Shown: positions 1 through 50,975, numbered from the stretch's first letter. The stretch: 64,000 nucleotides of DNA from Bdellovibrionales bacterium (GCA_965203275.1 OZ241865.1:1408001-1472000); one strand, 5' to 3'. Translations and numbers: made by a program. Notes: a model not told the origin generated them from the sequence alone.

Positions 1-2286
1 ATCTTTTCTGGTCCTTACACATTGGCTTTGATGACAATCCACAGAATAATGTTTTGGAAATTTACCTGCTGTTGAATTGGATGGTACTTTTGTAAGAATA
101 GAATATTCTTTCTTATCTCTATTCTTAAACCACCTAGTATTATTGTTTGAAAAAGAAAAGTTTTGAGCTTCAAATGTATCTGGATCATCTGTATCCCATA
201 TAAGAGTATTATTAGAACTACCTCCACAGACATCCTTAGGAATAATGGTCACTGTTTGTCGACCATGTTGAATCCCGCTCAAAGTACCCTCACAACGTAC
301 TTCAGCTGCATGTCCAGCTGGAGCTCCGATGGTCATATTGATGGAACTAGTTGTATTAGTGGTGCCGGTGCCATCCCTTCGACGACCTAACTTTGTGCAG
401 TTTTCTAAATTATGGGTAAACTGGTCACATATCCCTACCTCAAAATCGACATTATTCCGATTGCACTGCAAACCATTAGAAGGCAATCTCCAACTAGTGG
501 TTGGACTAGAGCTGGAGTAATTCCTCCCCTTAACTCCATCGCCGGGTTGACCTACATCGTCCTCGCCATGCTTAAAACCTACTTCAGATGTGGGTCTTCT
601 GGCATCTATATAAAAACGACTCTTAACAACATTACCAACCTTACCAATCTGACGTGGATTGGTTACGCCCAACTGTGAGGCTTCTATTACCTCTAGCTCA
701 TACCTTCTATTAGGTGGTAAATCATTGAACTTTAATCGCAAATTGATATCATTACCACTGCTATCTAAAAATGTACTGTTTGTACTGCCGAGTTGACCCG
801 GAAATTTCACTTCATGACACTTCTGCCAAGGACCTTTTGTAAAAGAACAACTTGCCCATGGATAAGAATTACAACTTGAAGACATGAGATAATTAGTTGT
901 GCTATCACCACTTACACAACCCCTGACCCCTCGACATAACAAGACTGTTCCAAATTCTTTTGACCTGCTCTGAGGAAACTTCAAGTCCATAATAATATTT
1001 TTGTAATTAGAGCCATCTGTATCACACGAAGTTTGTTTGCGTGAACTCAGCAGTAAGTCCTTATTATGACCATTCTTGAGGGAGGTAACTTCTACACTGA
1101 CAGGAGTTTGATTTCCTTCTACAAGCATTCTTGTTTGATGAGAAAATCTTTGCATTGCATTGCAAGAATAACTCTGGTTTTCTTTTTCATATTTTAACTT
1201 AACTGTCACTTGGAATCCTAAGTCAGGATTACCTATGGTACTTAAACCTGAATTACTGCTTTTGATTCTAGTTTTAAAGGCTGGACTCCCTGATACAGAA
1301 AGCCTAGGATGAGTCAATATTAATTTATGTGTAGCAGGTGAACGTGGACAAGTCACAGGTATTGATACAAACTTACTGCCGTCATACTTTGTCTCTTTAC
1401 ATTTAATATCTGCATAACTTTCTATGACTTTTTGATTTGTAAGATCAACAGGGTTAATCCTGATATAGAATTTCACATTTTGAAGGTTGTACTCTTTAAG
1501 ATACTCCTTCCATAAAGAGGCAATTCTTCCATCACTTGTTGTGGTGCTACTGGTAATGGTAAACATTTTACCTTTTTTGTCTTCGTCCAGTTCATTTGCA
1601 TCAAAAAATTGAGGGTCGGAGTTATATAAAAATTGTAGAAAATTAACAGCATTCAGCAACAAGACAGATGTACCTGTCTGAACAGAAGAACCAGCATTCA
1701 CTTTCACCAAATCCACTCCGGTATTGATAAATTGAGATGGAGGGTTGCTATTGATCAATTCCCTGTATAATTTTGTATACAGCGTTGGAGTATTTAAGCT
1801 AGTGCCTGAACTGATATCGTTAATCTCATATTCAGCTGGATTTGTGCTGGCAATTTGAGTGCCTTTTTTAATAAGCAGTGGATTATAATCATAGCCAGCT
1901 TTGTATCCGTAAAGACGAGTCCCTAATGAGACCACTCTATCTAAACCTGATTGGGCAATGCTTTGACAATCTGAATCTTGTGCAGATGAACGCATCACTG
2001 TTTGACTCTGTGTGAAGTAATATGCTGTGCCTACACTGATTAAGGCAAGCATGGTCATCACAATCAACATTTCTACTAAGCCCATTCCTAGCTGTGATTG
2101 TGGTTGTGGCTGGTTGCACTTTTTAAAATGATTTTTTTTAAGACAATCAAAACCTGGACTTAAGGGGGGGGGGGGGGGGTAGGCTAATTGCGTTATGCAA
2201 TTTTTTTGCAGAAGTGTTTGTACAAATATTTGTACAAATGAAAAATAAAACCAAACTAAATAAATAATCTTTTTGTATATATACAT
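1..2286 (-). CDS. Large prepilin-type N-terminal cleavage/methylation domain protein (minor pilin/adhesin-like, Cys-rich), 3' end outside window
   Basis: Not in the ORF track because there is no stop in the window. Manual translation from ATG 2286: MYIYKK...AYPPPPPLSPG...QSQLG|MGLVEMLIVMTMLALISVGTAYYF, a class III signal peptide with G|xxxxE. The same frame is open at the window edge (…DCHQSQCVRTRKD). Contains a C16 tract (plus-strand G16, 2164-2179). Confidence 0.8.
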   Translation of the reverse strand, partial: MYIYKKIIYLVWFYFSFVQIFVQTLLQKNCITQLAYPPPPPLSPGFDCLKKNHFKKCNQPQPQSQLGMGLVEMLIVMTMLALISVGTAYYFTQSQTVMRSSAQDSDCQSIAQSGLDRVVSLGTRLYGYKAGYDYNPLLIKKGTQIASTNPAEYEINDISSGTSLNTPTLYTKLYRELINSNPPSQFINTGVDLVKVNAGSSVQTGTSVLLLNAVNFLQFLYNSDPQFFDANELDEDKKGKMFTITSSTTTSDGRIASLWKEYLKEYNLQNVKFYIRINPVDLTNQKVIESYADIKCKETKYDGSKFVSIPVTCPRSPATHKLILTHPRLSVSGSPAFKTRIKSSNSGLSTIGNPDLGFQVTVKLKYEKENQSYSCNAMQRFSHQTRMLVEGNQTPVSVEVTSLKNGHNKDLLLSSRKQTSCDTDGSNYKNIIMDLKFPQSRSKEFGTVLLCRGVRGCVSGDSTTNYLMSSSCNSYPWASCSFTKGPWQKCHEVKFPGQLGSTNSTFLDSSGNDINLRLKFNDLPPNRRYELEVIEASQLGVTNPRQIGKVGNVVKSRFYIDARRPTSEVGFKHGEDDVGQPGDGVKGRNYSSSSPTTSWRLPSNGLQCNRNNVDFEVGICDQFTHNLENCTKLGRRRDGTGTTNTTSSINMTIGAPAGHAAEVRCEGTLSGIQHGRQTVTIIPKDVCGGSSNNTLIWDTDDPDTFEAQNFSFSNNNTRWFKNRDKKEYSILTKVPSNSTAGKFPKHYSVDCHQSQCVRTRKD

Positions 2287-2399
2287 TTTAACTGAACCCT
2301 TAAACTTATTATAAATGATTTATCGACAACTTAACGAAAAAAGTAAAAAATATATAATTTTTTTAAGATTCTGTATCAATATAATACACATCGACAGTG

Positions 2400-3662
2400 A
2401 AATACCCAGAATCCGGGATTCCGGGATCTGGGATCCGGAATCCGGCAACCCGGCATCTAAATGAACTTTTTCCTTAACATGTTGTTAAAAAACGAGGAGA
2501 TCCTTCCCTACTAAAAGTGGTCAGGCTTTCTAGGTTGCCAGCATTTGAGAAGGCGATAGCCTTCGGCTGGCAACCAGAAAGTGACCAGAGGTCAGACCAC
2601 TTTTAGTGAAACAAATCCTTCAGTCTCCCACTGCCCCATCCTCTCCCTAATTATTTTTTGTTTGATGGTTACGCAGAATCTAAAAAAAATAAAAAAACAA
2701 AAAAAAAGAACTTTTTCCCTAACATGGTGTTAAGAGAAAAAAGGATCCTTCCCTACTCAAAATAAATGGATTTTCTAGGCAGTTAGCCTTTGATCAACGG
2801 CGATAAGCCGTTGGGCTAACTGCCAGAAAACATGCCAGAGGCATGATGCATTTTGAGTGAAACAAACCCTTAACATGTTGTTAAAAAACGAGGAGATCCT
2901 TCCCTACTAAAAGTGGTCAGGCTTTCTAGGTTGCCAGCATTTGAGAAGGCGATAGCCTTCGGCTGGCAACCAGAAAGTGACCAGAGGTCAGACCACTTTT
3001 AGTGAAACAAATCCTTCAGTCTCCCACTGCCCCATCCTCTCCCTAATTATTTTTTGTTTGATGGTTACGCAGAATCTAAAAAAAATAAAAAAACAAAAAA
3101 AAAGAACTTTTTCCCTAACATGGTGTTAAGAGAAAAAAGGATCCTTCCCTACTCAAAATAAATGGATTTTCTAGGCAGTTAGCCTTTGATCAACGGCGAT
3201 AAGCCGTTGGGCTAACTGCCAGAAAACATGCCAGAGGCATGATGCATTTTGAGTGAAACAAACCCTTAACATGGTGTTAAAAAATGAGGAGATCCTCCCT
3301 ACTCAAAATGAGCAGGCTTTTGAGACAATGACCATTTTGTCAAAGGCGAAAGCCTTTGCAGGCAACGCTCAAGGTGTAAGAAGGAACTTTTTCCTTAACA
3401 TGTGGTCAAGAGACGAGAGGATCCTCCCTACTAAAAGTAAACGGACTTTTGAGACATTGCTCTTTTGGGACAGCGTAAGCTGTCAGAGCAATGTCCAAAA
3501 GCAACCAGAGGTTGGTTTACTTTTAGTGAGACAGAGGCTAGACCACTTTTAGTGAAACAAAACAAGCTGATAAATTAGGAGCTTATTTATACAAGTTGTG
3601 TAAAAACACTTAAAGTTAAAATTGATTTTTTCTGGGATCTAGGATCCGGCAACCCGGCATCA
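2400..3662. repeat. Cluster 1 of structured intergenic repeat elements (units ~2508-2612, 2753-2863, 2904-3008, 3149-3259, truncated 3299-3360, 3428-3533 plus tail to 3558)
   Basis: Repeated module TAACA(tgg/tgt)TGTTAA..GGAGATCCT.CCCTACT[A/C]AAA…nested inverted repeats…CCAGAGG…TTT[A/G]AGTGAAAC. Bounded by ATCCGGCAACCCGGCATC motifs at ~2440 and ~3644. Confidence 0.9.
2472..3263. repeat. 396-bp direct tandem duplication (2472-2867 / 2868-3263)
   Basis: CCTTAACATG recurs at 2472, 2868 and 3264. The two intervening 396-bp blocks read identical. Confidence 0.9.
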
Positions 3663-3690: not shown

Positions 3691-3846
3691 TTATTAATCT
3701 TGGTAGGAATATGGTTATTTACTTGTTCCTTAATAGGGTTTATTTCTTTTTTAATAGTCCTATCTCTTTATTAATCTTGGTAGGAATATGGTTATTTACT
3801 TGTTCCTTAATAGGGTTTATTTCTTTTTTAATAGTCCTATCTCTTT
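3691..3846. repeat. 77-bp tandem duplication
   Basis: ttattaatcttggtaggaatatgg… starts at 3691 and at 3768. Confidence 0.9.
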
Positions 3847-4086
3847 TTTTATCGGGTCTACTGAAGAATGTATTATAACCCTTAAAACAATAATTGATAA
3901 AATGGCATTTATTATCTCTTTTGATGAATACAAATCTTGCAATCCAAAATAATTTACCACTATTAACAAAATAAACAAAACAAGGATAAAAAAACCTGTA
4001 TATCCTTTTAGCAATGATGAAAATATATCCATTGGTGATGATTGATTATTTTCTGGCCCGTTGCCATTACCTGAATGATCATTCAT
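3817..4086 (-). CDS. Small two-TM membrane protein (NH(I/L)PT coiled-coil family), possibly extended to 3660 by frameshifting
   Basis: 89-aa ORF with two hydrophobic helices and GAGGA upstream. The downstream 77-bp duplication encodes KEQVNNHIPTKIN in the -1 frame. Confidence 0.65.
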   Translation of the reverse strand: MNDHSGNGNGPENNQSSPMDIFSSLLKGYTGFFILVLFILLIVVNYFGLQDLYSSKEIINAILSIIVLRVIIHSSVDPIKKEIGLLKKK

Positions 4087-4693: not shown

Positions 4694-6791
4694 ATGTACA
4701 CTACAGCGTTTCAGCAAAAAATGCGGGGGGGGGGGGCAGTGCGTCAAAATGTCTGTGGTCCTCATTCTGTCTTGTTTGCAGGTGTTTTTAGAGCCTGTGG
4801 AAGTCTTTGCCAGGTCTGATGCCACTGCTTCTCGCTTAAAACCATCTAAAGTTACAAATACCAGAGTTAGTAATTCCCGATCTAGTAGATCAAGGGTTCA
4901 ACGTTCAAGAGCTTCAAATACCAGGGTTAAAAAACGCACTTCTTCTAGAGCAAGAAAAGAAAACAGAGCAAGAAGACAAAACACAAGAGTATCTCTTGAG
5001 GCTCGCTGGAAGCGATTACCTGTCAAACAAAAAATCAAGTTATATCATTCTATGGTCAGAACTATGGCTGTCTTAGAGTTATCTCGTCGTCAACGTTCTA
5101 CAAAAACATCCTCCCTTTATCCATTTTGGCAATTATTTATAGCACAAGCTTATGCTCAGAATTCACCCGTAGCATGTTTTCTGGGAGGGTATACTGTACG
5201 TGGTTGTCGAAGGGGTGATTGGAATGCGGCAAGGAACATATCTGGTAGGAGATGTGATTTAAATGGTAATGGTACTAATAATGGTATTACATGTAATCCT
5301 GAAATATTCCCTACAGCCCCTTGTGTTTATGATTTGAGAGAGGCAAGAGAAACAGTAAGTAGAAACTATAGCACCACTCAAGCTTGTGCTTATGCTGATG
5401 CTCAACTGATAGCACAGAAATTAAGAGATGGTAGTATCTCTCCGGAGCAGAAAAGAACAGTTGTTGAAGAACAACTCAATAATGAAGATTTATGGCAGTT
5501 AGGTGACCCTAGTACATGGATTGACAAAAGAAATAAACTCATCGAAACAATCTTAGGCGGAAATAATGCAATGACTCGATACAATGAAGCTCTTTTAAGT
5601 GAGGCGACTGGTATTTTAGATAAGCTTCAAGAAGTGGATGTAGCGTGTCGTCATGTAAGTAGCTCCTTTGAAGAGAAACACTGCGATGTATTTCGACATG
5701 ACTTAAGAGCATTAGAAACTGAAAAGAATCGTGCAACTGAAGCTACAGATTCTTGTTTTAAATTTCATGAATTACCTGGGGAGCATTTTTGTCAAGTTAA
5801 AACCGGTGATGATAAATATCTTGTTGTAAGGCTGGAAAGAGGTGGTGAAGAAAATAACAGATTAAACGCTGTTGTTTATCAAAGCGATAGTAGTCCAGCA
5901 GGAGACTACTGTTTGGATTCCAGTTTCACTGCTCATGATAAACATGTTATTAATGATGCACAACTGGCTAATTTTTCTAATGTGGGTTATCCATTTAGTG
6001 GTGCAAGACGACTTGCATGCAATCGTAACAATCAGAGCCATAGTGCAAGCTTTACCTATCAAGGCCATGAGATTGAAATAAAAAAAGAACTGGGTGCAAG
6101 TAATCGTTGTTTATTTGATGAAGATGATGATGATGATGATATTGATAATATTGATGATATTGATAGAGATTTAGGCAATGATCGAACTGAGCTTTTTTTC
6201 CCAGGAATAGTAGATGATGGTGATGAAGAAGAAGAAGGAGGTGATAATAGTATTTATGGGTCAGCATTAGAAGCATATAATAAAGAAAAAAATAAAGGAC
6301 AGAATACGGATAAGTGTATAGAAGCAAGTCATGTAGCCTTTCATGAAGCAGGACTTCTCTTTAACACAACCTGTCTAAATCAAGGTAGACGTCGTAATAA
6401 TCTTTTTATAGATAAAAGCACAGGGAGTAGCATTAGCAGAGTCCGTAGCATTATATGGTTAAAACGTAGTGATTATAAAGAATATGACAGATTATCAATT
6501 GCGGGAGGAGGATCCAAACCAATACCTTCTACAACTCCTCCTCGTAATAGCTGTAATAGCGATAGTTCTATATGTCGTAAATATTTAACCCTTACAGATT
6601 ATTTGTGTGGTATTGGGAATGCTCCTAGTGCTGATGGAACTGGATGTGAAACCCCGGTAGCAACAGAAGCAAGCAGTGAAGATTGGACAACAGGACTAGC
6701 AAACGAACTCCAACATTGTTCTTCAGCTGCCCCTGCCTCTGCCAGAGATGGAGGAAGTGGTGGTCGAGCGACACCGGGGCAGGGTGGGTGA
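4694..6791 (+). CDS. Secreted Cys-rich protein, poly-G family paralog 1 (main ORF 4749-6791; RBS-linked ATG 4694 out of frame across G12)
   Basis: AGGAGG RBS before ATG 4694; G12 at 4725-4736; signal peptide, R/S-rich segment, FWQLFIAQAYA motif, Cys-rich body. Paralogous to 18993 and 22297. Confidence 0.8.
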
Positions 6792-18955: not shown

Positions 18956-21161
18956 ATGTACACTATAAACAAACTCAACATTTCAGCAAAAAATGCGGGG
19001 GGGGGGGGCAGTGCGTCAAAATATATTAATAGCCCTACTTCTGTCTTGTTTGCAGGTGTTTTTAGAACCTGTGGAAGTCTTTGCTCAATCTGATGCCACT
19101 GCCTCTCGTGTAAAACCATCTAAAGTTACAAATACCAGAGTTAGTAATTCCCGATCTAGTAGATCAAGGGTTCAACGTTCAAGAGCTTCAAATGCCAGGG
19201 CTGGACAACGCACTTCTTCTAGAGCAAGAAAAGAAAATAGAGTGAAAAAACAAAACAAGAGAGTATCTTTTGCGACTTACTGGAAGCAATTACCTGTCAG
19301 AAAAAAAATCAAATTATATCATGCTATGGTGAAGACGATGGCAGCTTTAGAGTTATCTCATCATCAACGTCCTAAGCGTTCTACAAAAACATCCTCCCTC
19401 TATCCATTTTGGCAATTATTTATAGCACAAGCTTATGCTCAAGACTCACCTGACAATGTGTGTTTTTTTGGAGGGCATGTTTTACGTCAGTGTGATTTTG
19501 ACAGAGCAAGAAATGACGAGAGTAAAAAATGTAGTTTAGGTGATCAAGCAGGTGTTCGGTGTAACCGTAGTATATTCCCTACAGCCCCTTGTGTTTATGA
19601 TTGGAATGAAGCAAGAAGACGCGGAACAAGAAACTATAACACCACTCAAGCTTGCTCTTATGCTGATGCCCAATTGATAGCACAGCAATTAGAAAGCGAT
19701 GGCCCTTCTCGCTTTACTGCAATCACTCCAGATCAGAAAAAAGCAGTCGTTGACGGACAAATGAATAATGTAGATTTATGGGATTCAGATGACCCTGAGG
19801 AATGGATTGAAAAAAGAAATGCACTCATTGAGGAAACTCTAGGTGGAGAAGGTGATGCAATCACTCGATACAACGCAGCTCTTTTAAATGAGACAGATGA
19901 TCGAATTATAGGTGATTTTTTTCAAGCAACTACAGCAGCATGTACGACGAATGCTTCACAAAAACCTGCTGAGAAAAAGTACTGCACTGTATTTCTAAAT
20001 GATGTAGAAGAATTATCAAACGCAACACAACTAGGGGTTCAAATGCATGACGGAGTTGAAGTTTATGACGGTGAAGGTGAGTCCCGTGAACGTAGGCTTT
20101 GTTTTAAATTTCAGGAATTACCTGGAGAGCATTTTTGTCAAGTCAAAACTGGTGATAATAAATATCTTGTTGTACGACTGCTACTTCAATATCCTCCTTA
20201 TTCATACGCTGATGCAAGATTAGGAGCTGAAGTTTATCAAAGTAATAGTCCAGAAGGAAGCTATTGTTTCAGTTCTAATTTCAGTGCCGATGACGAATAT
20301 GGTCTGACTAATTTTTCCAATCCTAATGATTTAGCAGGAGAACAGGGAATTGCATGTAATATTCGTGGTAAGAGCCACATTGCAACTTTTAGCCATCAAA
20401 GTCAACAGATTGCAATACAAAAAGAACTTGGCCCAAGCAATCGTTGTTTATTCAAGAACCCCCGAAGGGGTGACAACCAACGGGCAGAAGCACGAGGAGT
20501 TATTCCAAATTTAGGAGATAATGAAACGACTACTTTCTTCCCAGGAATAGCAAGTGATGATAGTTTTTATGATGAAGCATTAGAAAGAAATCAGCAGGGT
20601 ATGACATCGAATGGGACTATGAATGATCGCAAGTGCATGGAAACAAGTTATGTAGCTCTCTATGAAGCAAGTCATCTCTTTGAATCAGCATGCAAGAGAG
20701 CTATTCCTTATAGAGCTACTCGTCGTCGTTTATATGTACATCAAGGAGCAAAGGAAATTGATTATAACACAGCATTCGTACTCAATCAAGCAGATTATAA
20801 AAGTTTTGACAGACTATCGATTGATAGTAATCGTGGAACAGAACTAACTTCTAAACCAATAGATCCTATAATGAGGAATTGGTGTGGTCCTGGTCGTCAT
20901 ATAGCTGGTTATGGTGTTCCAGAAAACTGCATACAAAATAAATATCGAACCAGTACAGATTATTGGTATGGTGATGGAAATGGACCTAATGCCAATAACA
21001 TGGAGCCTTCAAACGGCAACTGGCGGACAGGGCTAATAAGCGAACTCCGACATTGTGGAGGTGCTACTCCTTCAAGAACTTCCACGCCTGCTGGGCCTAG
21101 AGGCCCTCAAGGGCCTCCTGGACAGATGAGGCGACCTAGAGGTAGTAGCGGTGTTCAGTAA
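18956..21161 (+). CDS. Secreted Cys-rich protein, poly-G family paralog 2 (main ORF 18993-21161)
   Basis: AGGAGG RBS before ATG 18956; G12 at 18997-19008; same leader and FWQLFIAQAYAQ motif as 4749. Confidence 0.8.
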
Positions 21162-21180: not shown

Positions 21181-21990
21181 TCAAAAATCCGTTTATTTTT
21201 AGTAGGAAGAATCCTTTCCTCTTTTTTCAGTTTTAGGACCTGATGCCGGGTTGCCAGATCCCAGAAGAAGGATCCCTTTTATTCTGAAAATTGGTATACT
21301 CCTTTAAATCCATACCAGCAAATCTTATAATTTAAAAAGGCAAATTATTTTTTCAGCTTGAGAATGTCATCTTTAGACAAACCTGTCATTGTAGAGATCA
21401 ATGAAATATTGAGATTTTCTTTCAACATATTTTGTGCCACTTTCTCCATTCCTTCCTTACGACCTTTCTCTACCCCTTTTTCCATCCCTTTCTCCATTCC
21501 TTTCTCCATCCCTTCCTTACGACCTTTCTTCATCCCTTTCTCCATTCCTTCTTCATAAGCACCCTTTTCTCTGGCTGCTTGATCTTTTCTGTCTCTCTCT
21601 TTCACCATTGCAAGCTCCTGTAATGTCTCATCTTTTGTTTCCCTAAAATTGAACTAGCCGTCATTTTCACTCAAAATGAGCCACACCTCTGGTGTGTTTT
21701 TGGGCATTGCTCTGACAGCTATCGCTGTCTAAAAAGAGCAATGCCGCAAAAAACTGCTCATTTTGAGTAGAGAGGATCTCTTCGTTTCTTAACACCATGT
21801 TAAGGAAAAAGAGTTCTTTCTGATGCCTGACTGCCGGATCCCAGATCCCGGAATCCCGGATGAACACCATTTAAGGAAAAAGTTCCTTTCTTTTTGTTTT
21901 TTTATTTTTTTAGATTCTGCGTAACTCTCAAAAAATGAATATTATGAGTGGGAGGCGAGGGCAGACTGAAGGAGTTGGCTTGATGTGTGG
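21181..21990 (-). repeat. Cluster 2 of structured repeat elements (full unit ~21666-21770; fragments 21181-21265 and 21780-21970), bracketing an orphan RpnS-like ORF
   Basis: Reverse-complement unit with CC-AGA-GG, GC-GATA-GC, TAACA/TGTTAA palindrome, GATGCC…CCGGATC and gttacgcagaatcta modules. Confidence 0.85.
21345..21608 (-). CDS. Orphan Rpn C-terminal fragment (RpnS-like; EKGM repeats + HTH-like tail)
   Basis: AREKGAYEEGMEKG…VAQNMLKENLNISLISTMTGLSKDDI is the typical Rpn C-terminus; GGAG RBS before ATG; nuclease part absent. Confidence 0.75.
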   Translation of the reverse strand: MVKERDRKDQAAREKGAYEEGMEKGMKKGRKEGMEKGMEKGMEKGVEKGRKEGMEKVAQNMLKENLNISLISTMTGLSKDDILKLKK

Positions 21991-47604: not shown

Positions 47605-48402
47605 TATTTGCACTAAAAGTAAACTAGCCTCTGGCTACTTTCTGGCGATGACCACGATGGCTTTCGCCATCGATAAAATGGTCATCGCCTAGAAAACCTG
47701 ACCACTTTTAGTAGGAGGATCCTTTCCTCTTTTAACACCATGTTAAGGAAAACATCCTTCTAATGGTTTGCCCGACGGCTCTCGCCGTCGACAAAGGCTG
47801 ATTGCCTCAAAAACCGTTTATTTTTAGTAGGGGAGGATCTCTTCGTTTCTTTACATGATGTTAGGAAAAAATTTCCTTTATTGCAACTCGCTTGCTCCTT
47901 AAAAACATTTTAGAGGCATATCTTATTTCCCTAACATGGTGTCAAGAAGCAAGGAGATCCTCCCTACTCAAAATGAGCATATTTTTGAGGCATTGCTCTT
48001 TTTAGACAGCGTGAGCTGTCAGAGCAATGCCCAAAAACACACCAGAGGTGTGGCTCATTTTGAGTGAAATGTTAAGGAAAAAGAACTTCATTCGTAAATC
48101 CGCTTGCTCCTTAAAAGCATTTTAGAAGCATATCTTGTTTCCCTAACATGGTGTCAGAAGCAAGGAGATCCTCCCTACTCAAAATGCATAGATTTTTGAG
48201 GCAATGACCATTTTGCCAACGGCGTAAGCCGTTGCGGTCATTGCCCAACAGTGGCCAGAGGCCAGTTCACTTTGAGTGAAACAACTCCCTCCCTACTAAA
48301 AGTAAACGGATTTTTGAGGCAATCAGCCTTTGATCGACGGCGTGAGCCGTCGGGCTGATTGCCCAAAAACAGCCAGAGGCTGGTTTACTTTTAGTGAAAC
48401 AG
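47605..48402. repeat. Cluster 3 of structured repeat elements (minus units ~47611-47714 and partial 47770-47830; plus units 47964-48070, 48175-48282, 48293-48400)
   Basis: Same fold and invariant loops as cluster 1; divergent (back-to-back) arrangement. Confidence 0.9.
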
Positions 48403-48503
48403 TTGAGTTTTCTTGACATATCCCACAAAATAATCTAATATAATATATAAGGGAATTTTTATTCTGATATATAGTTCAGGGACAATTAGCACACGGGGGA
48501 AAA

Positions 48504-48776
48504 ATGAGTTACTTAGTTTTGTGGGAGAAAATAGATAAATATTTTAAACAGCATGGCATGATCACTTTTATTGTTCTATGTATGTTTATTTTACTTTTTT
48601 ATTTAACTTATCAAGTAACTAATCATCTCCCTACAGAAATCAGAGAGGTGAAGATAGAGCTTAAAGAAGACATTAAAGAGCTTAGGATAGAGCTTAAAGA
48701 AGACATTAAAGAAATTAAAGATGGGCAAGATATGATCATTAATCATTTACTTAATAATAATAAAAAAGGTCAATAA
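48504..48776 (+). CDS. Small TM-anchored coiled-coil protein (NH(I/L)PT family)
   Basis: TM helix, YQVTNHLPT, IELKEDIKE x2; TTGACA/TATAAT-like promoter at ~48414-48445. Confidence 0.75.
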   Translation: MSYLVLWEKIDKYFKQHGMITFIVLCMFILLFYLTYQVTNHLPTEIREVKIELKEDIKELRIELKEDIKEIKDGQDMIINHLLNNNKKGQ

Positions 48777-48879
48777 AAAAACAATCTCCTCACTGATTCC
48801 GCCGATAAAAATAATGCCGTTCGACTCATAACCTACTGATTTTAATCAACTTTATTTTTGCTGGCTATCAAACTCAGGA

Positions 48880-49100
48880 AGTTACGCAGAATCTAAAAAA
48901 AAACAAAAAAAAGAAATCTTGTTTCCCTAACATGATGTTAAAAAACGAGGAGATCCTCCTTACTAAAAGTAAACGGACTTTTGAGGCATTGCTCTTTTTA
49001 GACAGCGATAGCTGTCAGAGCAATGTCCAAAAGCAACCAGAGGTTGGTTTACTTTTAGTGAACCAGAGGCATGATTTATTTTGAGTGAAACAACTCCTCC
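48880..49100 (+). repeat. Structured repeat unit (48961-49063) plus extra 3' tail, abutting the RpnS array
   Basis: gttacgcagaatcta module, TAACA/TGTTAA palindrome, full unit, then CCAGAGG…GTGAAAC tail. Confidence 0.85.
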
Positions 49101-49487
49101 TAGGCCTTTTGAAGGTCTGATACTTCTTGTTTGGAAAGTCCTGTAGCTTTGCAAATAGCTTGAATATCTACATGACCCGACTTAAGAAGATTTAAAGCAA
49201 CTTCTTTTAACCCTTCTTGTCGACCCTTTTCCATACCTCTTTCCATACCTCTTTCCATACCCTTTTCCATACCCTTTTGAAGGTCTGATACTTCTTGTTT
49301 GGAAAGTCCTGTAGCTTTGCAAATAGCTTGAATATCTACATGACCCGACTTAAGAAGATTTAAAGCAACTTCTTTTAACCCTTCTTGTCGACCCTTTTCC
49401 ATACCTCTTTCCATACCTCTTTCCATACCCTTTTCCATACCCTTTTCCATACCTTCTTGTATGGCTCTTGAATAAGTACTTGGCCAT
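49100..49487 (-). pseudogene. RpnS-like copy 3 (1-nt insertion after ATG 49487; ORF 49100-49450 with internal 168-bp duplication)
   Basis: GGAGGAAATA-ATG-G-CCAAGT versus ATG-CCAAGT in the other copies; two GRQEGLKEVALNLLKSG…DLQK modules. Confidence 0.7.
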
Positions 49488-49496
49488 TATTTCCTC

Positions 49497-49730
49497 CTAG
49501 GCCTTTTGAAGGTCCGATACTTCTTGTTTGGAAAGTCCTGTAGCTTTGCAAATAGCTTGAATATCTACATGACCCGACTTAAGAAGATTTAAAGCAACTT
49601 CTTTTAACCCTTCTTGTCGACCCTTTTCCATACCTCTTTCCATACCTCTTTCCATACCCTTTTCCATACCTTCTTCTCTACCCTTTTCCATACCTTCTTG
49701 TATGGCTCTTGAATAAGTACTTGGCATCAT
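49497..49730 (-). CDS. RpnS-like copy 2 (free-standing duplicate of the Rpn C-terminus)
   Basis: Identical to the last 76 aa of 49740-50723; own GGAGG RBS; 243-bp repeat period. Confidence 0.8.
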   Translation of the reverse strand: MMPSTYSRAIQEGMEKGREEGMEKGMERGMERGMEKGRQEGLKEVALNLLKSGHVDIQAICKATGLSKQEVSDLQKA

Positions 49731-49739
49731 TATTTCCTC

Positions 49740-50723
49740 CTAGGCCTTTTGAAGGTCCGATACTTCTTGTTTGGAAAGTCCTGTAGCTTTGCAAATAGCT
49801 TGAATATCTACATGACCCGACTTAAGAAGATTTAAAGCAACTTCTTTTAACCCTTCTTGTCGACCCTTTTCCATACCTCTTTCCATACCTCTTTCCATAC
49901 CCTTTTCCATACCTTCTTCTCTACCCTTTTCCATACCTTCTTGTATGGCTCTTGAATAAGTACTTGGCATAATTATTTCCTCCTTATTTGTTATAATTTC
50001 TTGTTCTATCTTATATAATATCTCTTTAGGATAATCTGCGGTCTGAAACATATACTCACTCAAAAAACCTGCATACTCTCGATAACTAATCACATCTTCA
50101 CTATCTCGACGACAAAGCTTTAGTATAGACCTTATTTTATCCTTAGTCATATTCTTAGCAAACTTCAGAGCATAACATAAAGCTACTATTGAACCTGCTT
50201 TATTCCAAATGTCATCCTCCGATATCTTATTTAAGTCTATCACAATCACACCAAAATTCAACCCCAAATCACCAAAAACCTTCCTCATTTCTGGTGTCCA
50301 ATTAAATGCCCCTTGCAAATCAGAAGCTGTATGAGACGAAGCATCATTGTGTAACAAAAAAATCGTCATAACAGGGTAAGTACCTGACTTTAAAAGTGCC
50401 ACGTTGTAATCTAAAACATTTAAAAAAAGTTGCTTCTGAGACTGCTTGAAGCTTTTATGCTCTATAATGACACCGACTAAGCCCTGCATCTTCATACCTT
50501 TAACACCTACTTTAGCTATGACATCAGACCGACACTCCTCAATCCGTCCACCTAATTTTTGATCTAAAAAGTCTGTCTTAATAAATTCCAATCGATTAAA
50601 CTCAAAAGCATTAAACTGATCCTTAGCCAATGAGAACTTGATAAAATCTTTAAATCTTTTAGGGTGTTTAAGACCCATCCTTGCTATTTGATCATGCTGA
50701 ATTCTAAAATCACTTTTTGACAT
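49740..50723 (-). CDS. Rpn family recombination-promoting nuclease/putative transposase (PD-(D/E)xK) with internal RBS+ATG (49970)
   Basis: HDQIAR, DFLD…CRSDVIAKV…IIEHKS nuclease motifs; EKGM repeats; internal AAGGAGG-N8-ATG before MPSTYS. Confidence 0.88.
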   Translation of the reverse strand: MSKSDFRIQHDQIARMGLKHPKRFKDFIKFSLAKDQFNAFEFNRLEFIKTDFLDQKLGGRIEECRSDVIAKVGVKGMKMQGLVGVIIEHKSFKQSQKQLFLNVLDYNVALLKSGTYPVMTIFLLHNDASSHTASDLQGAFNWTPEMRKVFGDLGLNFGVIVIDLNKISEDDIWNKAGSIVALCYALKFAKNMTKDKIRSILKLCRRDSEDVISYREYAGFLSEYMFQTADYPKEILYKIEQEIITNKEEIIMPSTYSRAIQEGMEKGREEGMEKGMERGMERGMEKGRQEGLKEVALNLLKSGHVDIQAICKATGLSKQEVSDLQKA

Positions 50724-50975
50724 CGGTCTTCCTCCTCATAAATTCATAAATTATTGATATTCTATTACTTATCGGCTTATAACACAATTTCAAGGAAAAA
50801 ACAAGCTCAATAACACACCATGTTAAGAAAACACCCGGCATCTACACAAAAAAGCCTCTACAAAAGAAATTCCTATTTTTTGGCCCGCTGCGTATAGCAA
50901 GTTCTTTTAAGCTATGTTACAAAAAGATATTACAGGGAAAATTGTATATAATCTCATAAAAAAGAGGATATAAAC

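Follow-up and report, generated by a model that had tools for sequence, protein, structure and literature searches.

The window analysed here is a 64,000-nt stretch of DNA (G000:C1:1408001-1472000) from the source genome, G000, a single 2.57-Mb Bdellovibrionales contig of 35% GC that is 90% complete by markers. At 2508-3558 it holds a pile of five complete copies, one truncated copy and one tail-only copy of a non-coding element, set among heptamer arrays and the remains of a four-helix-bundle gene (Table 1). An exact duplicate block reduces the five complete cores to three sequences. Serial insertion into a cassette of four-helix gene and heptamer arrays is the best account of the cluster. 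To its right, AT-rich DNA at 3700-3850 contains an 87-nt direct duplication, and the protein family encoded at 4749-6791 (680 aa; paralogues near 19000, 22300 and 24500) has a basic N-terminus rich in Ser and Arg and matches no Pfam entry. At 49088-50729, on the minus strand, an Rpn gene is followed by tandem copies of its own C-terminal repeat segment.

Table 1 Copies of the element and neighbouring features in the window (window positions)
Feature	Position	Strand	Remarks
Empty insertion site	2280..2307	+	Uninterrupted allele; two paralogous loci elsewhere in the genome hold the element here
Degenerate heptamer array	2408..2459	+	Of the kind flanking four-helix-bundle (PF05635) cassettes
Complete copy 1	2460..2613	+	Left mini-hairpin; leader motif 2473-2480; core 2511-2609; P1 2511-2522
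Family B 3' remnant	2614..2703	+	Marker motif 2668-2680; element inserted into B; limits approximate
Complete copy 2	2704..2864	+	Leader 2718-2725; core 2756-2860; P1 arms from two different alleles
Exact duplicate of 2472-2877	2868..3273	+	Offset 396 nt; copies 3 and 4 plus B remnant
Cores of copies 3 and 4	2907-3005 and 3152-3256	+	
3'-truncated copy	3261..3367	+	Leader 3265-3272; P1 5' arm 3302-3313; stops in P2 3' arm
Complete copy 5	3368..3533	+	Leader 3394-3401; core 3431-3529
Orphan 3' tail of another copy	3533..3557	+	Begins at P3 loop
3' end of four-helix-bundle gene (TIGR02436/PF05635)	3558..3613	+	Codons 84-101 and stop; joined directly to the element's right end
Heptamer array	3628..3660	+	Closes the broken four-helix cassette
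Further complete copy	21664..21815	-	
Further complete copy	47607..47757	-	
Cluster of three copies	47922..48400	+	Cores 47967-48067, 48178-48279, 48296-48397; first right end joined to an inverted leader
Complete copy and orphan tail	48917..49091	+	Abuts 3' repeats of an Rpn (PF04754) gene

The element measures ~155-165 nt (~160 nt) and folds into a conserved three-armed hairpin, or three-way junction. A leader of ~55 nt, made up of an A-rich/T-run mini-hairpin, CC[TC]TAACAT and GATCCTCCCTA, precedes a core of 99-105 nt, an AGTGA end and a variable A/C-rich tail. The ~105-nt unit of the initial annotation is sound as the core but falls short of the whole unit, and the terminal GTGAAAC that it gave is not invariant, AGTGA being followed by AACA in 290 of 708 cores. 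Within 2508-3558 the P1 stem spans 12-13 bp, that of the second unit being a mismatched chimera. Calculated with DNA parameters, the minimum-energy fold of all three distinct complete units there is the three-way junction (z -9.5 to -12; none of 200 shuffles equally stable), which, together with the covariation described below, bears out the repeat family proposed for this site. The P2-mid and P3 pairs listed in the same annotation are all present in the window, but only three of each lie inside 2508-3558; the remaining listed stem pairs originate in the copies at 21664-21770, 47607-47714 and 47964-49064. The leader TAACA, a bulged A, the AGA triloop and the AGTGA end are invariant, the bulge, loop and end motifs across species as well, and the asymmetric bulges and a T-rich internal loop are likewise kept. 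CTAC, which had been taken (as GTAG in reverse) for a mark of REP sequences, is variable (521 of 707 copies; TTAC in 114, TTCC in 56) and lies tens of bases away from both true element ends, on the minus strand 3' of the main stem, where the conserved GTAG of REP sequences lies 5' of the palindrome. Variants at L163:535-1171, L159, L165 and L171 either carry an additional 15-nt hairpin within the P3 loop or have an extended P2 loop, so the loops tolerate insertions.

A pattern search of G000 gave 1,199 leaders and 708 complete cores, of which 371 lie on the plus and 337 on the minus strand and 434 are distinct. BLAST with one third of the distinct copies as queries assigned 189,165 nt, or 7.4% of the genome, to the element in 612 clusters, and 5 of 707 cores fall within ORFs; like REP sequences, the element is of high copy number, extragenic and clustered. 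The summed contig depth over the cluster was ~100-fold background in three of four sequencing runs, and the high copy number is therefore not an assembly artefact; the best of these runs may derive from the source sample itself. With a covariance model, the family was found in 3 of the order's 151 genomes, namely G000, G001 and G004, in the last on three small contigs. The G004 copies are confined to contigs C1, C4 and C11 (L003, L006 and L009), and no core was found in the 1.18 Mb read from its four large contigs (about a quarter of G004 lies outside this portion). Since C11 carries a second S10 operon, whose rplN is 88% identical to that of G000 and 79% to G004's own copy, these three contigs probably belong to another organism close to G000. 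Pattern scans did not find the element in viral contigs (0 matches), plasmids or phages. The scan of genome contigs returned at least 13 loci; among those listed, 10 came from one Bdellovibrionales record, which was not counted as a further genome, and the other three were chance matches without the fold. Seven metagenome loci were not accepted either, the best scoring 32 bits in the model on both strands of a plain hairpin. No description of the family was found in the literature searched, whose coverage ended short of subscription journals and supplements; within it, the element is an undescribed variant of the orphan structured bacterial repeats.

Other hairpin repeats occur in the order. 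Family B, a long compensated hairpin repeat of G000 (84 marker matches genome-wide), is a frequent target of the element and is also found at window 2614-2703 and 3010-3100. Families C and D are unrelated to the element family. Family C, on the main contigs of G004 (C12-C15; L039-L058, L119-L157), is a modular branched hairpin with covarying small stems and 41 marker matches, which nests and inserts into four-helix genes. Family D, in G003 (L019-L038, L059-L118; e.g. C1:72700-73100), is a covarying long hairpin with a ~124-nt unit in tandem arrays; its 126 marker matches fall at 82 loci, and 70 have an outer arm paired at 13 of 14 positions, this arm occurring in 41 variants. Neither G003 nor G004, the hosts of families D and C, gave a Y1 or reverse transcriptase (RT) match.

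The element inserts into new sites and into older copies of itself. An empty paralogue was found for 13 of 44 solo copies with non-element flanks, yielding 12 distinct empty/filled pairs in about seven target families by inspection; one of the empty alleles lies in the window at 2280-2307. Target loss in these 12 pairs ranges from 0 to 55 nt (median 12.5), a figure inflated by the fact that empty paralogues are not true pre-insertion alleles, and no pair (0/12) has a target duplication. One filled site lies inside a four-helix gene, with 4 nt lost, and the rpsQ-rplN spacer holds an element in L003 (G004 C1) and none in G000. Target sites have no consensus. The comparison of empty and filled sites thus confirms insertion, with loss and without duplication. 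The initial annotation had missed that this is a mobile repeat, with ~1,200 leaders and ~700 complete cores. Where a copy is sandwiched between element fragments, the half-element on its upstream side and the orphan arm on its downstream side pair with each other in 23 of 69 cases (shuffle mean 9.0, maximum 20, n = 2000), and the orphans match the copy's own end in 8 of 147 cases against 18.5 expected, so that they are not its duplicates.

Right junctions lie 1-14 nt past AGTGA, giving ragged ends, and the P3 loop and the leader are junction hot spots. One exact joint, of a right end to an inverted leader, recurs in 49 of 707 copies and may descend from a few events. Microhomology at the junctions is only suggestive: it is significant over all right sites (n = 105; 2.81 vs 2.38 matches in 8 nt) and all left sites (n = 52; 2.98 vs 2.37), and with one paralogue per target family (45 right, 18 left families) the median p is about 0.08 per side. 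Choice of the left flank by pairing with the leader was rejected, as a swap control gave -3.9 kcal/mol against -4.0 observed and hence no site-specific pairing. The element has no replichore bias, and its orientation is not biased relative to local GC skew (p 0.53-0.86), which is weak in G000. From its insertion footprint and nesting, we conclude that it is very probably a mobile selfish element.

Nine mobiliser-type families were searched for, and 249 lineage-specific soluble candidates were read by eye. G000, at 90% completeness, contains no Y1 transposase/RAYT (PF01797), no RT (PF00078) and no IS110. Integron integrase (TIGR02249) was found above cut-off in none of six genomes, G000 included, and the two tyrosine recombinases of G000 are Xer/Fim-like by inspection. 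Similarly, neither a stand-alone TnpB nor a stand-alone GIY-YIG protein is present in G000, the TnpB zinc finger occurring only inside a Cas12-sized ORF and GIY-YIG matches only inside a UvrC-sized ORF; DinB and Prim-Pol were not found there. The IS91 search of G000 was blank, and its control also gave no signal anywhere. The single Y1 gene of G001 is an ordinary IS200 TnpA with no element in 3.8 kb; one of three RT matches in that genome has an element about 480 nt away, RTs not being common to G000. IS256 and IS1634 of G000 have their own ends, which do not resemble those of the element by inspection. The two ends of the element also differ from each other, 49 of 707 copies gaining an inverted leader by nesting. 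As separate observations, two Cas12a-like ORFs (982 and 1325 aa) face apart near a broken cas1-like gene at G000 C1:235349-244285 and 369600-376815, together with a type I-F-like locus (labels by inspection); the array of the latter has triplicated spacers, and an element abuts its end.

The initial annotation had proposed a REP- or attC-like signal with a cognate enzyme elsewhere in the genome. This part of it was not supported: G000 has no Y1, RT or IS110, nor IntI above cut-off, CTAC is variable and lies away from both ends, and imprecise joining with loss of target is not what HUH or integrase reactions produce. Other features of the element look more like recognition by a protein. Its bulge, loop and end motifs are invariant across species, it has a sharp right boundary at AGTGA and junction hot spots at the P3 loop and leader, and in REP systems it is the bulge and loop that the enzyme contacts, according to the available part of PMC8266576. 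A dedicated, structure-recognising mobiliser outside the searched families, be it a divergent HUH protein or nuclease, an unassembled gene, or a plasmid or phage product acting in trans, could move the element as a REPIN-like substrate, the more so as the search covered nine mobiliser-type families. We consider this possible if somewhat unlikely, given the blanks for Y1, RT, IS110, stand-alone TnpB, IntI and Prim-Pol in G000, the ordinary IS200 nature of the only Y1 of G001, the lack of matches in viral contigs, plasmids and phages, and the chemistry implied by the ragged junctions.

Two kinds of multi-copy candidate stand out in G000, the Rpn nucleases and the four-helix proteins. Of 17 Rpn genes, 15 have element DNA in the 150 nt past the stop, as against 105 of 861 single-copy genes; all nine intact four-helix genes have it in the 300 nt downstream. 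G000 and G001, with 33 and 34 Rpn matches and equally 33 and 34 four-helix matches, are the only genomes seen in which both families are expanded. An Rpn protein (PD-(D/E)XK, PF04754) might nick and prime template switching, or an Avd-like four-helix protein (PF05635) might chaperone an RNA or DNA copy to the host polymerase; RpnA products have been described as priming DNA polymerase and enabling primer-template switching (available text of PMC5350276). Such an active partnership is nevertheless improbable. Rpn is expanded in the element-free genomes G003 (20) and G022 (16), and was rejected as a specific partner on these grounds; four-helix genes are expanded in the element-free main contigs of G004, in G021 and in G025. 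Four-helix genes are numerous in G000, G001 and G004 and absent from G002 and G003, a pattern whose value for a specific partner is weakened because the element copies of G004 are confined to the probably foreign C1, C4 and C11. The element breaks both Rpn and four-helix genes, which therefore behave as targets. The flanking geometry also varies, the flanks of paralogues are not independent of one another, and G000 lacks an RT. As to the genes themselves, G000 has nine intact four-helix-bundle genes, near-identical to one another, and about 370 heptamer arrays, which are degenerate; elsewhere in the order, four-helix genes flanked by heptamers are found again, in some genomes as divergent pairs on either side of a hairpin. 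Four truncated Rpn paralogues have an element immediately ahead of a downstream ribosome site and start that may open the small C-terminal protein.

The stems of the element vary in a concerted manner. Nine Watson-Crick alleles of P1 cover 583 of 707 parsed cores, and seven alleles of P3 cover 673. Among 424 distinct sequences, perfect stems were counted in 321 (P1), 344 (P2a), 347 (P2b) and 391 (P3), three- to five-fold above shuffles, the maxima of which were 80, 104, 68 and 99, respectively. Two-sided changes occur in 26 of 40 pairs in an unfitted MAFFT/RNAalifold alignment of 22 copies and in 29 of 40 in a model-fitted alignment of 52 distinct rows, both counts carrying no phylogenetic correction; in the fitted alignment 97.6% of cells are paired, against 34-46% for slid partners. 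Normalised mutual information is higher between paired arms (P2b5'-P2b3' 0.88, P2a5'-P2a3' 0.71, third pair 0.66) than between adjacent segments (P2a5'-P2b5' 0.47; others 0.47 and 0.43). Neutral random-tract conversion gave the reverse pattern under all six simulated settings (P2b arms 0.15-0.34, P2a arms 0.09-0.28, adjacent P2a5'-P2b5' 0.50-0.67), which argues that stems are swapped as modules and mismatched products under-represented. There are 82 stem combinations among 212 fully paired distinct cores. These linkage data, with which the alignments and pair counts agree, support the initial proposal that selection (or a structure-aware process) acts on shape and not on sequence.

Covariation of this kind could also be produced without selection, if fold-back template switching repaired mismatched hairpins and gene conversion then spread the alleles, leaving the fold as a by-product. 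Palindrome repair is an established mutational route, and mosaic alleles and discordant chimeras do exist here, P1 being imperfect in 103 of 424 distinct sequences. This explanation is quite improbable, however: asymmetric bulges and the T-rich internal loop, which repair should erase, persist across species; the simulation, which was of neutral linear conversion, yields the opposite linkage pattern; G-T is tolerated over A-C on one strand; and de novo insertion is left unexplained.

Strong covariation does not by itself make a bacterial intergenic motif a functional RNA. GNNA accounts for 620 of 633 tetraloops, and 229 of them are GNYA, the third base being a pyrimidine; such freedom at this position fits DNA mini-hairpins better than RNA GNRA loops. 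Single mismatches are more often G-T than A-C (39 vs 19, p = 0.012), which suggests that the written strand folds by itself and not as a cruciform. Relative to co-directional neighbours, 196 copies are oriented with and 168 against (p = 0.16), which argues against a cis-acting RNA. Rfam gave no family at gathering score (13 sub-threshold matches, best 22 bits), in agreement with the novelty claimed at the outset. On the evidence of loops, mismatches and orientation, the element probably acts at the level of ssDNA, with the strand as written, which was the first of the two initial suggestions; the second, a novel structured ncRNA, is unlikely in its cis-regulatory form. A host-useful structured RNA or DNA signal kept by host selection, for instance for mRNA stability or nucleoid organisation, might be read from the strong covariation, from the better RNA fold of the plus strand, compared with the minus, in 94% of the cores sampled and from copies inside operons (e.g. 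rpsQ-rplN), but it is very improbable for an element that has no orientation to genes, occupies sites that differ between paralogues and species, destroys its own copies and breaks genes, has GNYA in 229 of 633 tetraloops, matches no Rfam family at gathering score and is found in only 3 of 151 genomes of the order.

Our best reading, which we favour tentatively, is that of a lineage-specific, non-autonomous selfish element that enters as ssDNA when strands anneal in the course of host replication or repair, and this host-driven route is the single likeliest mechanism. A single-stranded copy, such as a displaced replication flap or an excised hairpin, would survive through its tight fold in a cell without RecJ. 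P1 would close the fold and hold two unpaired tails side by side; the tails would anneal imperfectly to exposed chromosome, and host enzymes would build the copy in, as in SPDIR (10.1101/2024.07.02.601687). Nicks made by the expanded Rpn nucleases may supply some of the priming sites. Recombination among the ~1,200 copies would shuffle nested stems, and covariation would follow if only copies that still fold kept spreading. SPDIR, described with annealing at imperfect microhomologies and in recJ/exoX mutants, makes two imprecise joints with net gain or loss of target and is promoted in the absence of RecJ; the element is similar in its imprecise joints and target loss, and may be so in microhomology and in a dependence on RecJ loss. 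SPDIR differs in that it occurs rarely, as a mutational process, and takes arbitrary donors in Acinetobacter baylyi, and the available part of that source does not present it as the way in which a dedicated, structured repeat family is copied (10.1101/2024.07.02.601687).

Among 61 genomes of the order, recJ is present in G002 and 46 others and had no match in 14; these include G000, G001, G003 and G004, which are kin and not independent cases. G008, G009, G010, G014 and G020 are also recJ-negative, and G021, G022 and G025 are recJ-positive like G002. The presence of ExoVII (xseA) and MutS argues against the host-driven route, as do the weak microhomology and the lack of an orientation bias with GC skew. 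The invariant motifs and the recurrent exact joint (49/707) look more like protein recognition than passive survival.

A further step, which we regard as doubtful, would be to see here a class of selfish DNA requiring neither an enzyme of its own nor one from a transposon, its shape alone letting host replication paste in the folded strand. Were this so, shape would mean nuclease resistance and juxtaposed annealing tails, and families A, C and D would represent at least three origins of the class in a recJ-less lineage, with evolution by whole-stem swaps. If a protein is responsible, the mobiliser would lie outside the searched families; if none is, the element would be a fold-only genomic parasite. 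This bears on the spread of orphan bacterial repeats without a known transposase. The family offers hundreds of copies, scorable empty and filled sites, natural compensatory alleles for each stem and a concrete host lesion (recJ loss), and the question of spread becomes directly testable with a 160-base oligonucleotide.

On the features tested, the element falls outside REP sequences, attC sites and MITEs; by analogy, it would work like REPINs and appears to resemble bcr1 in size and compensated branched fold. Integron attC sites have a single-strand fold with extrahelical bases and covarying arms, as the element does. Unlike attC, it forms a three-way junction, lacks cassette arrays, occurs in both orientations genome-wide and is accompanied by no IntI above cut-off; no co-oriented sites separating single-gene cassettes were found, the element being dispersed genome-wide without orientation to genes. 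With REP/REPIN/BIME sequences and their RAYT, as portrayed in the available parts of PMC3116915 and PMC8266576, it shares hundreds of intergenic non-coding hairpin copies that form tandem arrays and insert into or next to older ones, along with a conserved bulge and a probable ssDNA substrate. Unlike them, it is a branched three-way junction with a long leader rather than an inverted REP doublet, lacks an invariant GTAG at the stem foot and a RAYT in G000, and has ragged junctions with target loss and freely reassorting stem alleles. The bcr1 repeat of the Bacillus cereus group (about 155 bp) is equally lineage-specific and dispersed, with a branched fold kept by compensatory changes, and no mobilising enzyme is named for it in the available text (PMC3184786). 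Compared by description and not by sequence, bcr1 differs in being transcribed and flanked by 5-bp direct repeats (PMC3184786), whereas the element lacks a duplication in 12 of 12 pairs. MITEs, too, are short, non-autonomous and able to fold (PMC3184786, available part), but the element generally has no terminal inverted repeats, no target duplication and, by inspection, no likeness to the ends of IS256 or IS1634. At G000 C1:432252-433487 an IS256 copy has inserted at an element's P2 tip and is accompanied by a short duplication, in contrast to the element's own footprint.
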